Positions 25,280-38,739 of a stretch of DNA of 64,000 nucleotides are shown piece after piece. This DNA is from Escherichia phage vB-Eco-KMB23. The notes under the pieces are model-generated. The model made no database searches and was not told where the DNA came from. It worked only from the letters and a program-made list of their open reading frames with translations. Position 1 is the first letter of the stretch, and every line of letters starts with the position of its first letter. The stretch lies in sequence record OR525702.1; one strand, given 5' to 3'. A program made the position numbers and the translations under genes.

Positions 25280-25861
25280 CTAACCGAGCTTTTTAGTTAA
25301 TTCATTCCAATGTTTTCTGCACAAAGAAACATAAATTTCATCACCAATACAGATTTGATTACCTTCTTTAACTGGTGTTCCATCTTCCATTAATCGAGCT
25401 GTCATAATCGCTTTTTTGCCGCAATGACAAACTGCCTTTAGTTCAATAAGTTTATCTGCAATCGCTAAAAGTTCTTTAGAACCTTCAAACAATTTTCCAG
25501 CGAAATCAGTCCTTAATCCATAAGCCATAACAGGAACATTATATGTATCAACAATTCGGCTTAATTGGTGCACCTGTTCAGTTTTTAAAAACTGGGCTTC
25601 ATCTACAAATACGCAATGAATATCTTTTTGTGCTTCAGCCCATTTATAGAACTCGAAAATATCCATATCATCTGTAATAATATTCGCTTCCTGCTTAATT
25701 CCAATGCGAGAAACGACTTCACAGACAGAATCGCGAGTATCAATAGCAGGCTTAAGAACTAATACACTCATTCCACGTTCTTTATAATTATGCGCAGCAG
25801 TCAAAAGAGAAGCAGATTTTCCAGCATTCATTGCTGCATAAGTAAAAATTAAACTCGCCAT
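25280..25861 (-). CDS. tk: Thymidine kinase
   Basis: 193 aa; P-loop YAAMNAGKSASLL; C-terminal zinc-binding Cys pairs. Confidence 0.9.
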   Translation of the reverse strand: MASLIFTYAAMNAGKSASLLTAAHNYKERGMSVLVLKPAIDTRDSVCEVVSRIGIKQEANIITDDMDIFEFYKWAEAQKDIHCVFVDEAQFLKTEQVHQLSRIVDTYNVPVMAYGLRTDFAGKLFEGSKELLAIADKLIELKAVCHCGKKAIMTARLMEDGTPVKEGNQICIGDEIYVSLCRKHWNELTKKLG

Positions 25862-26051: not shown

Positions 26052-26233
26052 AAGGAATTTATATAATTAATAAGTTCTTGTTCTTTATTATCGAATTCTT
26101 TAGAAAGTTCTTCGTACTCGTTTGCACTAAAAGGACCGCATTCATTACAAACTTTTTCCAATTCGCTATTTTTATCCATAACTTCGTGGATAAGAGAAAA
26201 GAGTTTGTCTTTTTGTTCTTTGCTTAGGCTCAT
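26048..26233 (-). CDS. Hypothetical small protein, 61 aa (EQ-K family)
   Basis: N-terminus MSLSKEQKDKLFSLIHEV. Confidence 0.45.
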   Translation of the reverse strand: MSLSKEQKDKLFSLIHEVMDKNSELEKVCNECGPFSANEYEELSKEFDNKEQELINYINSL

Positions 26234-26399
26234 ATATTAATTTCCAGAAGTTTTAAAATAATTCGCTTTTGCTTAAATATTTCCATAGTTAAATGATCAG
26301 TATCTTTTTGACCAATTCCAATGGCAAAACCTTTATTAGCAGCGAGTTCAATTAAATTATCAAGTTCACGTAACACTTCGTACTGTAACTCAGAACTAT

Positions 26400-26612
26400 T
26401 CATTTCGGTTTACCTTCTTTAACGAAATCTGGATAAGGATAAAATCCCGAATAAAATCCTTCACCTTTATGATTGACGCATCCTTTATTAGAACAATAGC
26501 ACCAATAATCGAAATCACAAGCCATTTCATCGTTGCATAAAGCAAAAACAACCGGCCACTTACACTTTTCACAATGGGCATTTTTAAGAATACTAGTTTG
26601 GCTCATAACCAT
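26400..26612 (-). CDS. Cys-rich small protein, probable zinc binder (likely start at MSQTS, 26606)
   Basis: HCEKCKW...CYCSNKGCVNH; preferred over the overlapping-frame ORF 26396..26581. Confidence 0.45.
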   Translation of the reverse strand: MVMSQTSILKNAHCEKCKWPVVFALCNDEMACDFDYWCYCSNKGCVNHKGEGFYSGFYPYPDFVKEGKPK

Positions 26613-26830
26613 GTCACCTTTAAGCAGTATTCTTCTACATGCTGTTTACGACCTTTCTTATCAATAAAGGTATATTCAACGAATGTTCCAATGTAGTCTT
26701 TATCTACATCATGTGGACTATTAATTGGACATTTAGTACGGCAAATGCGTTCCCATTGACGAATAATTACTGCCTTATTCTTTGGGTCATACGGATGTGG
26801 ATAATGTATATTCATAATAACGGTTCCCAA
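26603..26830 (-). CDS. Hypothetical protein, 75 aa
   Basis: ORF track. Confidence 0.45.
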   Translation of the reverse strand: MGTVIMNIHYPHPYDPKNKAVIIRQWERICRTKCPINSPHDVDKDYIGTFVEYTFIDKKGRKQHVEEYCLKVTWL

Positions 26831-27279
26831 TCAACAATCACAATTTCTAATTTAGAGGAATATGTATCTAAAATCCCCTCAATAATATCCCAGTTCCCTT
26901 TACCCATGCCTGCACCAATCCTAGGCATATAGATTGTAGGTTTAATCAGTTTATTTTCACCAAACTCATTTAATTCTAACATACAATTCATTAAAGCGGA
27001 ATACTCAAAATTTGGCCCCGGTTGAAATTGAGTATAAAGATTGAAGCAGTAAGCTTTATGAGTCCTAAAGTATTTTTCATAGACTGAGTAAGAACCGAGT
27101 TTAGTTACATCGCCCCATTCTGTCTGTAATTTATCAGCTTCCAAAATTTTAGGGAAAGCTTTGGTTAATTGACCCGCTACGCCTGAACCCATAGTATGAA
27201 AACAATTGCATCCATGCGCAATATTTTTACCTTCAGCGAAAAGGGCGACAATATCGCCCTTGATATATTTTACAATCAT
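26812..27279 (-). CDS. TARG1/OARD1-like macrodomain protein (putative ADP-ribose glycohydrolase)
   Basis: KGDIVALFAEGKNIAHGCNCFHTMGSGVAGQL and IYMPRIGAGMGKGNWDII parallel human OARD1 motifs as recalled (AHCISEDCRMGAGIA; MPRIGCGLD). Confidence 0.7.
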   Translation of the reverse strand: MIVKYIKGDIVALFAEGKNIAHGCNCFHTMGSGVAGQLTKAFPKILEADKLQTEWGDVTKLGSYSVYEKYFRTHKAYCFNLYTQFQPGPNFEYSALMNCMLELNEFGENKLIKPTIYMPRIGAGMGKGNWDIIEGILDTYSSKLEIVIVDWEPLL

Positions 27280-27617
27280 CTAGTACTCAATCCTCGATTA
27301 TAAGAATCTACCAAACGGTCAACCATTGAATGACAAGCGGCTTTATCTTTCTCCTCCGCAACTGAACATTCTAAGGTATTCCACTTTTTAGCATATCGTT
27401 TTAACAATGTATCATTTTTGTATCTGCTTGATTTATCTCTTTCTCCGTCTTTATATGCATATATTAATTTCTGCGCAAATTCAGCTTGGCATGCTTTATT
27501 TTTCCCGCAATAATCCGCTGCAGTACGGTTTACATACTCTCTAATTTCAGTATATGATGTATCTGCTAACGCAGAAAATGAAATTAATCCTATACATAAA
27601 ACCAAAATTTTAGTCAT
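27276..27617 (-). CDS. Secreted/periplasmic small Cys-containing protein, 113 aa
   Basis: N-terminal signal peptide MTKILVLCIGLISFSALA; four Cys in mature part. Confidence 0.55.
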   Translation of the reverse strand: MTKILVLCIGLISFSALADTSYTEIREYVNRTAADYCGKNKACQAEFAQKLIYAYKDGERDKSSRYKNDTLLKRYAKKWNTLECSVAEEKDKAACHSMVDRLVDSYNRGLSTR

Positions 27618-28155
27618 TTACTATTTCCAAAAGTTTATTATTTTTAAGGTAATTAGCCTTTTCTAGGACTTCAGAAGCATATTTAGAACCTGCTTTAACA
27701 TTCCATCCCGAATTATAAGAGGATATTGCTTTTCTTATATCGCCCTTATGTATATTTAACCAATAAGAAAGTTCAATGTACGCCCAGGAAGCTGAATTGG
27801 ATCGTTTATTCAACATTCTTTTTATTTCAGCATCGGTCATATTATAACCAAGTTCCTTAACTCTTGCTCGCATAGTAGGCAAATAATTTTGGAACATTCC
27901 GTAGGCGTGATGCTTTGGTTTAGATTTTAAATTAACTCCGCCAGAGCTTTCTTGCCATAAAATGGCTGCCATTATATGACCTAATCCGCTCTTGTGGATA
28001 TTTTTGTGTGTTTTATATTTTCCATCCTTAGAAAATTGTTCCCCGAATTGATACGCGTAACGCATGTTATCGAGTTGGACATTACTGAAAGTATGCTCGG
28101 AGCTATGTGCCATCATTGAAATGGCCAATAGACCAGCGAGTAGTGCTTTTCTCAT
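27610..28155 (-). CDS. Periplasmic lytic transglycosylase-like (SLT/GH23-like) protein
   Basis: Signal peptide MRKALLAGLLAISMMAHS; SLT motifs WQESSGG (catalytic ES), GMFQ, SYNSGW. Confidence 0.65.
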   Translation of the reverse strand: MRKALLAGLLAISMMAHSSEHTFSNVQLDNMRYAYQFGEQFSKDGKYKTHKNIHKSGLGHIMAAILWQESSGGVNLKSKPKHHAYGMFQNYLPTMRARVKELGYNMTDAEIKRMLNKRSNSASWAYIELSYWLNIHKGDIRKAISSYNSGWNVKAGSKYASEVLEKANYLKNNKLLEIVND

Positions 28156-28162
28156 GCTTACC

Positions 28163-28624
28163 TCATTGAGTTTTAATTACTGCTTTAGAAGCCTTTCCTG
28201 GTAAACGACGACTGTTGATAATTGCCATCCTGCATTGAAGCGACGGGTCTTTGAACTTCGCATTAGGTTTACAAACTGTAAATCCAAGCCAAAGATTTCC
28301 ATCTGTGATTTCTAAACGTCCAGGACGATATTCAACCCCATCAATAAAATCCTCGTCAATGTCAGGACGCGGAGGCATACTCAGGAATTCATTAACTTCT
28401 AAAACATGGTCTTTTATTTTATGGAATAATTCAAAAACGTATGTCTCATCAATCTCCCGTTGAATTGCGCGATCAAGAAGATGCTGAGAATATTTTAGAT
28501 GAAACGATGAGACTCCTGCTGCTTTTGATGCCTCACGAATCTCATTGTTAATTTGACGAAACTCCGACTCAAAGTGACGACGAAGCTTATTTCGACGGAT
28601 AAAAACTTCTGTATTGATAGTCAT
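28163..28624 (-). CDS. regB: Sequence-specific endoribonuclease RegB
   Basis: 153 aa as in T4 RegB; own early promoter and AAGAGGAG RBS upstream. Confidence 0.8.
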   Translation of the reverse strand: MTINTEVFIRRNKLRRHFESEFRQINNEIREASKAAGVSSFHLKYSQHLLDRAIQREIDETYVFELFHKIKDHVLEVNEFLSMPPRPDIDEDFIDGVEYRPGRLEITDGNLWLGFTVCKPNAKFKDPSLQCRMAIINSRRLPGKASKAVIKTQ

Positions 28625-28651: not shown

Positions 28652-28681
28652 ATTATACCACAGTCAAGAGGAAAAGTAAAC
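28652..28681 (-). promoter_or_regulatory. T4-type early promoter upstream of regB
   Basis: Minus strand GTTTAC, 18-nt spacer, TATAAT. Confidence 0.55.
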
Positions 28682-36479: not shown

Positions 36480-36780
36480 CAACCTTGTCGGGGTTCCACC
36501 TGCTAAGGCAAGTGTTTGTACGAAACGCCGGGATTCGAACCCGGTTATTAAGTAGTTGACGCTACTCAATATTTTAAAAGGCCATATCTCGACCATATCC
36601 GAACGTTCCGTCAAAAACGCTACTCGGTTTACGGCAAACATATTTCCTCGAATCGATAATTCGGTGCGCCGTTTCTGCTGTGATAGTAAAGAGCCAGAAC
36701 ACAGTAAAACTGTGGGAGGAAACTATACTCCAGGGAACATCAGTCCGACGACTTACCGGTAGCGACCCGGTTTCTTAGTA
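36480..36780 (-). ncRNA. Putative stable small RNA region (T4 species 1/2 RNA-like), partly tRNA-like
   Basis: Non-coding stretch between tRNA cluster and a strong terminator; contains a perfect T-arm-like CCGGGTTCGAATCCCGG (minus strand) but no canonical cloverleaf found by eye. Confidence 0.25.
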
Positions 36781-37125
36781 TTCTTTTAAAGCATCAACCT
36801 GTTCACGACGTTTACGCCATAAATCAATTACTTCATACGCAGATTCAGCATTTCGAATTGGACGGCATTTATATAAAGACTTGTGATTTTGATATTGTGT
36901 AGATAACGGAATTTTATCTAAAAGGTCTTTACGTTCAAAATATTCGTAACCATCTAAACCAAATGAACGATTTTTGAGAAATTGCCAATGACCAAATTCG
37001 TTTTCGACATAAACATAATCTGCATGCTGATAAAGCAAATTAATTACACGTTCAGAAATAACAGTATCATTATGATTAAAATAGAATGTTAAATCATGAA
37101 CTACTAAATAAACATTACCTTTCAT
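36775..37125 (-). CDS. Hypothetical protein, 116 aa, inside the tRNA region
   Basis: ORF track. Confidence 0.45.
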   Translation of the reverse strand: MKGNVYLVVHDLTFYFNHNDTVISERVINLLYQHADYVYVENEFGHWQFLKNRSFGLDGYEYFERKDLLDKIPLSTQYQNHKSLYKCRPIRNAESAYEVIDLWRKRREQVDALKEY

Positions 37126-37143
37126 ATTTTCCTCACTTATAAT

Positions 37144-37219
37144 TGGTCGAGGCAGTAGGGATCGAACCTACGACCCAGGACTTAGAAGGTCCTTGCTCTT
37201 CCTTCTGAGCTATGCCCCG
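37144..37219 (-). tRNA. tRNA-Arg (anticodon UCU), CCA encoded
   Basis: Manual cloverleaf: acceptor CGGGGCA/TGCCTCG, anticodon loop CTTCTAA, T-arm GTAGG-TTCGATC-CCTAC. Confidence 0.8.
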
Positions 37220-37223
37220 TAAT

Positions 37224-37299
37224 TGGGGTGACCGATGGGAGTCGAACCCATGACTACGAGAATCACAATCTCGAGTTCTACCAACTGAACTACGGCCAC
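37224..37299 (-). tRNA. tRNA-His (anticodon GUG), CCA encoded, no encoded G(-1)
   Basis: Manual cloverleaf: acceptor GTGGCCG/CGGTCAC, anticodon stem CGAGA/TCTCG, loop TTGTGAT. Confidence 0.7.
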
Positions 37300-37413
37300 A
37301 TTAATACCTACTCCAACAATCATGATGTCTTCACACGAAATTAAGAGAAGAGTGATCAGTTCAACCCCTATAATCGCGTCAAGTAGATATTAATGTGACA
37401 GTTGTCACAAATT

Positions 37414-37488
37414 TGGCGGACGTGATAGGATTCGAACCTATAACCAATCGCTTAACAGGCGATCGCTCTGCCATTGAGCTACACATCC
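37414..37488 (-). tRNA. tRNA-Asn (anticodon GUU)
   Basis: Manual cloverleaf: acceptor GGATGTG, anticodon stem ATCGC/GCGAT, loop CTGTTAA, T-loop TTCGAAT. Confidence 0.7.
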
Positions 37489-37492
37489 AAAT

Positions 37493-37579
37493 TGGTGGGG
37501 AGTGGTGGAGTCGAACCACCCGAGTCGCAATGACAATGGATTTACAGTCCACACCGCTACCTCTACGGGATAACTCCCC
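37493..37579 (-). tRNA. tRNA-Tyr (anticodon GUA), long variable arm
   Basis: 87 nt; anticodon loop CTGTAAA; class II variable arm; T-loop TTCGACT. Confidence 0.7.
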
Positions 37580-37591
37580 TAATTCATAATT

Positions 37592-37666
37592 TGGTGGCCC
37601 TGGGTGGAATTGAACCACCATCTGGCGATTATGAGTCGCTTGCTTGAACCTTCCAGCTACAGGGCC
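37592..37666 (-). tRNA. tRNA with CAU anticodon (Met, or Ile if lysidine-modified as for T4 tRNA-Ile)
   Basis: Anticodon loop CTCATAA; acceptor GGCCCTG/CAGGGCC. Confidence 0.65.
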
Positions 37667-37667
37667 T

Positions 37668-37743
37668 TGGTGCTGATTGACGGAATCGAACCGCCGACCT
37701 TCTCATTACAAGTGAGTTGTTCTACCTACTGAGCTAAATCAGC
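37668..37743 (-). tRNA. tRNA-Thr (anticodon UGU)
   Basis: Acceptor GCTGATT/AATCAGC; anticodon stem ACTCA/TGAGA, loop CTTGTAA; 1-nt spacer from previous tRNA. Confidence 0.8.
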
Positions 37744-37748
37744 AAAAC

Positions 37749-37838
37749 TGGCGGAGGCGATAGGATTTGAACCTATGAGTCGCCGGAGCGACTGCCGGTT
37801 TTCAAGACCGGTGCATTAAACCACTCTGCCACGCCTCC
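37749..37838 (-). tRNA. tRNA-Ser (anticodon UGA), long variable arm
   Basis: 90 nt; anticodon stem CCGGT/ACCGG, loop CTTGAAA; T-loop TTCAAAT. Confidence 0.8.
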
Positions 37839-37844
37839 AAATAT

Positions 37845-38495
37845 TTATATATTGTTAATTTGATTTAGAATTCTTTTTGCTTGAGTATGACTTACACCAA
37901 TATGCTTAGCATATTTAGATAATTCACCACGTTTAGAAAAATCATATAATTTAGAAATTTCTATTCTTCTTTTTCTTTCATCCGCAGAAACTTTTGATTC
38001 GTTTGCTTTTGCTATTTTACGTTTAGCTTCTTGAGAATGAGTTTTACCAGCAAAGCCATTCTTCATTAATCCATTTGAAGACCATCCTTTTAATTTTCCG
38101 TTAGAATGTGCCTTTTTAACACCCAATGAAATTAATTCGCGTTGCTGATCTGTCATAGGATAATTATTTATATGATCCCATCCACCTTCACCGCCGAGTT
38201 TTAAATTATACACATCTGGTTTATTTAAAAACTCTTCTGTGACAATATTTTTCTCAGCTTCAAGCATAGATTCTTTATCATCAAAATACTCTAATATTTC
38301 TTTAGAAAAATTTTCTATACCATATTTATCTTGGGCTCTTTTTAATAATTTACCAGAACCCATATATCCATCATCTAAATTTTCGGTAGAATGCACACCA
38401 ATATAAATTTTATTATTAATTTTATTTGTTATTTTATAAAGATAAAAATGCATATCAGTCCCTAATAAAGAACTGAGCGTCTCACGACGAGTCAT
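37845..38495 (-). CDS. segB: GIY-YIG homing endonuclease (SegB-like) embedded in tRNA cluster
   Basis: GIY-YIG module FYLYKITNKINNKIYIGVHS; C-terminal basic helix-turn-helix-like region; start codon ambiguous (38495 or MHFYLYK at about 38453). Confidence 0.75.
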   Translation of the reverse strand: MTRRETLSSLLGTDMHFYLYKITNKINNKIYIGVHSTENLDDGYMGSGKLLKRAQDKYGIENFSKEILEYFDDKESMLEAEKNIVTEEFLNKPDVYNLKLGGEGGWDHINNYPMTDQQRELISLGVKKAHSNGKLKGWSSNGLMKNGFAGKTHSQEAKRKIAKANESKVSADERKRRIEISKLYDFSKRGELSKYAKHIGVSHTQAKRILNQINNI

Positions 38496-38499
38496 AAAT

Positions 38500-38573
<74 letters not shown>

Positions 38574-38578
38574 AAATT

Positions 38579-38665
38579 TGGTGCGAGAAGTGGGACTCGA
38601 ACCCACAAGGAAATCATTCCGCAGCATTTTAAGTGCTGTGCCTTTACCAATTTGACCATTCTCGC
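38579..38665 (-). tRNA. tRNA-Leu (anticodon UAA), long variable arm
   Basis: 87 nt; anticodon stem CAGCA/TGCTG, loop CTTAAAA; acceptor GCGAGAA/TTCTCGC. Confidence 0.8.
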
Positions 38666-38666
38666 G

Positions 38667-38739
38667 CTGGGAATAAAGGACTCGAACCTTTGCATCCTGG
38701 AATCAAAATCCAGTGCCTTACCAACTTGGCTAATTCCCA
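38667..38739 (-). tRNA. tRNA-Gln (anticodon UUG), 3' CCA not encoded
   Basis: Anticodon stem CTGGA/TCCAG, loop TTTTGAT; acceptor TGGGAAT/ATTCCCA; abuts tRNA-Leu with 1-2 nt spacer. Confidence 0.75.

Follow-up and report, generated by a model that had tools for sequence, protein, structure and literature searches.

A Gln-type macrodomain protein in the tk-regB region of a T4-like phage, orthologous to T4 Tk.4 (AdfM), and its probable action on DarT2-modified DNA

The question raised by this locus is whether a small macrodomain protein encoded among the early genes of a T4-like phage is an eraser of ADP-ribose and, if so, whether the marks that it removes are those of a host defence or those of the phage itself. 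The window under study, a stretch of 64,000 nucleotides from Escherichia phage vB-Eco-KMB23 (OR525702.1), holds a gene that had been predicted from its letters to encode a TARG1-type macrodomain, serving either as counter-defence against DarTG or in tuning the ADP-ribosylation carried out by the phage enzymes Alt, ModA and ModB. Both the reading frame of 155 aa and its two paired motifs (residues 19-36 and 118-128) were recovered, and the placement in the tk-regB early region was borne out by the flanking positions of tk and regB. The features of the region are as follows.

25280-25861: tk, thymidine kinase gene (Pfam TK, E 6e-61)
26603-26815, minus strand: tk.3 (DUF7202), downstream of tk.4 (Pfam DUF7202, E 2e-38, and annotation)
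26812-27279, minus strand: tk.4 / adfM coding sequence, 155 aa with an ATG start, a single macrodomain and no other domain
27276-27617, minus strand: vs, valyl-tRNA synthetase modifier, upstream of tk.4 (by the annotation of e11/2 and T4)
27610-28155, minus strand: vs.1, with an SLT lytic transglycosylase domain (Pfam, E 1.4e-5)
28163-28624: regB (Pfam REGB_T4, E 1.4e-68)
28652-28680, minus strand: of the sigma-70-like promoter matches in the region, the best one (TTTACT-17-TATAAT with TG), lying upstream of regB

The gene is the orthologue of T4 tk.4, also named adfM. The two proteins share 154 of 155 residues (99.4%), the one difference being a conservative exchange of Ile125 in T4 for Met125 in the window phage, and at the codon level the genes are separated by six synonymous changes and one non-synonymous change. 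As in T4, vs lies upstream and tk.3 downstream within the tk-regB block; the gene is annotated tk.4 in both e11/2 and T4, and the gene order is that of T4. Over a segment of 2.7 kb around tk.4 the window phage is nearest to Escherichia phage e11/2 (Tequatrovirus), with 99.2% identity, and 579 phage records span at least 80% of this segment. The window phage departs from T4 by two extra small reading frames between tk.2 and tk.3, at 26230-26403 (minus strand, 57 aa) and 26400-26612 (minus strand, 70 aa), the second of which matches Pfam Phage_zn_bind (PF23895, E 4e-29). In T4, tk.3 follows directly after tk.2 without them, and the insert is frequent among Tequatroviruses, with 495 matching records.

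At the junctions, the TGA stop of vs overlaps the ATG of tk.4 as ATGA, and the TGA stop of tk.4 overlaps the ATG of tk.3 in the same manner. From these overlaps, the three genes were taken to form a single compact co-directional unit. Judged by its likeness to the consensus, the promoter-like site before regB is a candidate start for a transcript running through regB, vs.1, vs and tk.4, and promoter-like sites in the region were not in excess overall (25 against a shuffled expectation of 22.6 +/- 3.8). Terminator-like sites were likewise not clearly above expectation (5 in the region against 3.2 +/- 2.0 when shuffled). One of these hairpins, at 27241-27261 on the plus strand with an 8-bp stem, five GC pairs and a T-rich tail, lies antisense within the 5' end of tk.4 and was taken as a chance structure. 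A scan of the window for RNA families matched the tRNA cluster alone, distant from tk.4. This cluster at 36518-38739 (minus strand) comprises 11 genes according to ARAGORN (Lys, Arg, His, Asn, Tyr, Met, Thr, Ser, Gly, Leu and Gln), and 10 of the 11 were confirmed by Rfam, the exception being a 94-nt tRNA-Lys(ttt) at 36518-36611. T4 has eight tRNAs, and the set of the window phage is different.

The neighbouring vs encodes 113 aa in the window phage and 115 aa in T4. Its N-terminus, MTKILVLCIGLISFSALA/D, resembles a cleavable Sec signal peptide, which would be unexpected if, as is said, the protein acts on a synthetase in the cytoplasm. The N-terminus of vs.1 is signal-like too. An SLT-domain gene was also found on a metagenomic T4-like contig (L011, 6387-6893), two genes from the macrodomain gene. 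In a transposon screen of T4 by HIDEN-SEQ, vs was the strongest conditionally required gene in minimal medium (bioRxiv 10.1101/2025.11.20.689424).

The counter-defence role of tk.4 against DarTG2 is already known from T4. In the same screen, described in a preprint of November 2025, tk.4 was the sole significant hit when the host expressed DarTG2; clean removal of the gene rendered T4 sensitive to DarTG2, and the authors gave it the name adfM (bioRxiv 10.1101/2025.11.20.689424). The conditions were plasmid-borne DarTG2, 30 C and minimal medium, and the authors suggested that ADP-ribose is removed enzymatically from the DNA (bioRxiv 10.1101/2025.11.20.689424). The requirement of tk.4 for growth on DarTG2 hosts has thereby been shown by published genetics for T4, with its Ile125, rather than for the window phage, with its Met125, and the part of the original prediction that concerned counter-defence against DarTG is upheld through this orthologue, 99.4% identical. 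A second protein named AdfM, gp104 of phage PhiKZ, strips DarT2 marks from a TNTC oligonucleotide, and its N23A mutant is lowered in activity (PMC13309987). An enzymatic assay of Tk.4 itself was not found in the searchable literature, which yielded the note of 2006 on its domain, the 2025 preprint and the PhiKZ paper only.

That Tk.4 has the macrodomain fold is established, far beyond chance, by several lines of evidence. At 26.2 bits, the score for Pfam Macro (PF01661) over residues 22-132 exceeds the curated threshold of 22 (E 8e-6), PHROG 335 was matched at 1.5e-64, and the DarG model of PADLOC at 8.6e-10. A search of solved structures with the single sequence returned BT1257 (1.3e-9), yeast Poa1p, SCO6735, Thermus DarG and human TARG1. 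When a family profile built from 78 homologues was searched against solved structures, BT1257 ranked first (1e-24), followed by SCO6735 (3e-20), TARG1 (6e-18), Poa1p (4e-17) and DarG of M. tuberculosis and T. aquaticus (1e-14 and 3e-13), while coronavirus and alphavirus macrodomains reached 1e-4 or weaker. A second list of scores was led by BT1257 (18.1), Poa1p (17.7), M. tuberculosis DarG (17.0), Thermosipho DarG (16.6) and TARG1 (16.5), with all other macrodomain types at 13.8 or below. In its model, Tk.4 has a three-layer alpha/beta/alpha fold around a central mixed sheet, like the solved macrodomains. By profile and by structure the nearest relatives are those of the ALC1-like class, ahead of the MacroD, viral, PARG and macroH2A types, and since the best sequence and structure matches are the TARG1, DarG and SCO6735 members, Tk.4 is a macrodomain of the ALC1-like class, together with TARG1, DarG, SCO6735, BT1257 and Poa1p. 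In tblastn, relatives of Tk.4 were found in 2755 of 50,697 phage records. Among these homologues some are longer, as in Salmonella phage SP116 (Felixounavirus; L004, 1495-2280, 261 aa) and a Kuttervirus (L006, 1429-2034, 201 aa), with extensions after the macrodomain of about 100 aa and about 45 aa, respectively. In Pseudomonas phage vB_PaeS_B8 (Pakpunavirus; L005, 1-1980) a nicotinamide phosphoribosyltransferase gene is followed by one small gene and then by the macrodomain homologue, an arrangement suggesting that, in this phage, the removal of ADP-ribose may be connected with the replenishment of NAD.

Another possibility is that Tk.4 is a Poa1p-like ADP-ribose-1''-phosphate phosphatase, or processes other soluble ADP-ribose derivatives such as by-products of RNA repair or NAD-derived signals. 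Weak phosphatase activity on Appr1p in vitro is common among macrodomains and is not their role; it would be compatible with an activity on DNA. Poa1p (PDB 6lfq), whose known substrate is a small molecule, is longer (177-180 aa) and has Ser rather than Gln after the conserved Thr (…LFTSS…). The macro (A1pp) domain of tk.4 was noted in 2006 through a CDD match (PMC1524935), and it is from there that RefSeq took the label "phosphatase", which reflects an old domain name and not an assay; this label and "O-acetyl-ADP-ribose deacetylase" are best treated as carry-overs of domain names. As the sole phenotype on record is sensitivity to DarTG2 (bioRxiv 10.1101/2025.11.20.689424), a phosphatase or soluble-derivative role is very improbable. 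An eraser of DNA-linked ADP-ribose remains the preferred reading, and its chemistry is addressed by the active site, which is composed as follows.

27172-27225, minus strand: motif 1, NIAHGCNCFHTMGSGVAG, residues 19-36, strand beta-2 and the first ADP-ribose-binding loop (GxG)
27028-27030, minus strand: codon CAA of Gln84, which aligns with the catalytic Lys in TARG1 (K84), DarG (K80) and PhiKZ AdfM (K78)
26896-26928, minus strand: motif 2, MPRIGAGMGKG, residues 118-128, the phosphate-binding loop

Motif 1 includes His22, Asn25, Gly31 and Gly33, and its glycine loop G31-S-G33 follows strand 2, while the second loop, G122-A-G124-M-G126-K-G128, precedes the last helix. All 78 homologues share Asn25, Gly33, Ala35 and Gln84, and 74 of 78 have His22; conservation of at least 94% was seen for His22, Gly23, Cys24, Gly122 and Gly124. 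By column, G122 was counted in 76 of 78 and G124 in 73 of 78, position 126 is Ala in 63 and Gly in 15, and position 127 is Gly in 72 and Lys in three. The Gln and the Asn are both retained in homologues of Vequintavirus, Felixounavirus, Pakpunavirus and Kuttervirus and of a Streptomyces phage. In the alignment, Asn25 corresponds to Asn27 of SCO6735 and Asn22 of DarG, and residues of the motif-1 type matter functionally in SCO6735 (PMC9411070) and in PhiKZ gp104 (PMC13309987).

The positions of Gln84 and Gly126 were placed by three independent alignments. They correspond to the Lys84/Asp125 dyad of TARG1/OARD1 (PDB 4j5r/4j5s), Gly126 standing where TARG1 has Asp125 and where the family consensus is Ala, and TARG1 has Ser in place of the invariant Asn25. 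An identification with TARG1 proper was rejected for want of this dyad, so that of the predicted "TARG1-type" macrodomain the class, shared with TARG1 and DarG, has stood, and the particular TARG1 assignment has not. Nor is Tk.4 a DarG antitoxin: DarG (PDB 5m31/5m3e, 5m3i and 7omu) has a catalytic lysine (K80 in Taq DarG) where Tk.4 has Gln84, and carries a C-terminal DarT-binding domain and an adjacent darT, both of which Tk.4 lacks, and the NCBIfam model antitoxin_DarG was matched at model positions 2-146 of 338 only, its macrodomain half, with 30.9 bits against a cut-off of 250. The original prediction had regarded absence of the TARG1 Lys and Asp as speaking against it. Both residues are indeed absent, yet hydrolase activity is not contradicted, because SCO6735, which is without both, hydrolyses thymidine-ADP-ribose DNA efficiently.

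The residue pattern of Tk.4 is that of SCO6735 and BT1257, stand-alone members of the ALC1-like class (PDB 5e3b and 2afc/2fg1). Q84, N25, G122 and G124 of Tk.4 are equivalent to Q85, N27, G126 and G128 of SCO6735, although the identity of Tk.4 to these two proteins is just 21-30%. SCO6735 removes the thymidine-linked ADP-ribose made by DarT from DNA and protects cells from DarT, although the catalytic residues of TARG1 and DarG are absent from it (PMC9411070). Activity is lost in its Q85A mutant, nearly lost in N27S and impaired in G128E, and a water-based mechanism has been proposed from molecular dynamics (PMC9411070). Two lysines position the DNA in SCO6735, and Val25 was deemed characteristic by the authors (PMC9411070). 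In these respects the phage protein differs: Lys34 is replaced by Ser32 and Val25 by Gly23, the motif reads HGCNC rather than the HVCND of the SCO6735/BT1257 type, and the mobile-loop residues Lys89 and Lys94 are missing from a loop that is about three residues shorter, with eight residues between Q84 and Y93 and no Lys or Arg among them. The phosphate loop of the T4 clade has Lys127 and Asn129, unlike SCO6735 and BT1257, Lys127 being restricted to that clade and replaced by Gly elsewhere in the family; these two residues could make up for the missing DNA-binding lysines.

From this homology and the genetics of T4 it is most probable that Tk.4 erases thymidine-ADP-ribose from single-stranded phage DNA on DarTG2 hosts by a chemistry based on Gln84 and Asn25. 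As the packing of the genes suggests, tk.4 would be expressed early, within the run regB-vs.1-vs-tk.4-tk.3. On a DarTG2 host, according to the literature, released DarT2 would ADP-ribosylate thymidines in single-stranded phage DNA and block replication. The GxG loop (residues 31-33) together with the phosphate-binding loop (residues 122-128) makes up the cleft of Tk.4, which would then hold the ADP-ribose, and the bond between ribose and thymine would be hydrolysed, as by SCO6735, so that the base is restored and ADP-ribose is freed. A lysine-independent reaction is probable, in which Asn25 would hold Gln84, Gln84 would position the distal ribose and a water would act, a scheme unlike the Lys/Asp mechanism of TARG1 and the Lys mechanism of DarG. 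We infer the participation of Gln84 and Asn25 in the hydrolysis by analogy with SCO6735.

The same work on SCO6735 also points to another possibility, namely that Tk.4 mainly binds and inhibits DarT2, or shields the modified DNA, so that catalysis is not needed. In vitro, DarT is inhibited by each of the catalytically dead mutants SCO6735 Q85A, DarG K80A and TARG1 K84A, most strongly by SCO6735 (PMC9411070), and the genetics of T4 does not separate binding from catalysis (bioRxiv 10.1101/2025.11.20.689424). However, little or no variation was seen at Asn25, Gln84 and the glycine loops, even between distant phage lineages that infect very different hosts and presumably meet different DarT2 proteins; such constancy fits selection acting on the active site and not on a surface that binds the toxin. 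With its 155 aa Tk.4 also has no counterpart of the C-terminal DarT-binding domain of DarG, as the low NCBIfam score also reflects. Protection by binding is thus very unlikely, and hydrolysis of the DNA-linked mark is favoured.

The substrates of Alt, ModA and ModB bear on the further suggestion that Tk.4 erases or tunes the ADP-ribosylation, or the ModB RNAylation, of host proteins by the phage itself. These enzymes modify arginine, and it is hydrolases of the ARH type that cleave Arg-ADP-ribose, an activity not known from macrodomains of the ALC1-like class. Homologues are also present in many phages without known Alt or Mod enzymes (among them Felixouna-, Vequinta- and Kuttervirus and a Streptomyces phage), and tk.4 was only conditionally required in the screen, on DarTG2 hosts (bioRxiv 10.1101/2025.11.20.689424). 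The presence of three ADP-ribosyltransferases in T-even phages (reviewed in PMC9503650) and the ability of SCO6735 to hydrolyse protein-linked ADP-ribose as well, on PARP1 E988Q (PMC9411070), lend the suggestion some plausibility. It is nevertheless extremely improbable, and this part of the original prediction has gained no support.

A wider role in defence has also been considered, in which the range of Tk.4 would extend to further ADP-ribosylating systems, for example those directed at RNA or protein, DarTG2 being just the one that was tested. Both SCO6735 and TARG1 act on DNA and protein (PMC9411070), and among the ADP-ribose-processing domains of phages none is as widespread as Macro, which 41% of myoviruses carry (PMC9503650). 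By analogy with SCO6735, the Gln type may act on protein-linked ADP-ribose too, and if this is true, such an activity would be a second role for Tk.4 during infection. Against breadth, CmdTAC, an mRNA ADP-ribosyltransferase system, is robust against wild-type T4 despite its tk.4 (PMC11618068), and DarTG1, which modifies guanine, is countered in T4 by the NADAR enzyme AdfN and not by tk.4 (PMC11825919). We consider a broad eraser improbable, and removal of the DarT2 mark from DNA remains the reading to which the evidence points.

The two proteins named AdfM are distinct in their sites. Where Tk.4 has Gln84, PhiKZ gp104 has Lys (K78); the two share about 20% identity (E 0.003), and the structure matches of gp104 were to DarG only. 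In a neighbour-joining tree, a simple distance method applied to few reference sequences, the Tk.4 family groups with BT1257 and SCO6735, and gp104 falls within the DarG group, beside TARG1 (bootstrap 89-100). On account of the tree, the Lys/Gln difference and the low identity, the T4-type and the PhiKZ-type AdfM appear to have been recruited independently from two sub-clades of one fold. The homologues looked up in assemblies are stand-alone genes, one "MAG" contig being clearly T4-like phage DNA, and no annotated darT was seen beside three non-T4 homologues in genome and metagenome assemblies, where most neighbours had no Pfam assignment. The fuller proposal, that T4-type AdfM derives from the lysine-independent, Gln-type stand-alone branch and is not a captured DarG, while PhiKZ AdfM is DarG-like and was recruited separately against DarT2, is in our judgement about evenly balanced.

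The principle that phage enzymes reverse the chemical mark of a defence toxin on phage DNA has been documented, and the window adds nothing new to it, the T4 gene having already been named and tied genetically to DarTG2. What is refined is the nature of the T4 protein, which has the Gln-type site of SCO6735 and not the Lys-type site of DarG, TARG1 and PhiKZ AdfM. Fitting catalytic-dead controls would accordingly be Q84A and N25A, as Tk.4 offers no Lys to mutate, and the Gln-type site bears on how the origin of the gene is inferred.
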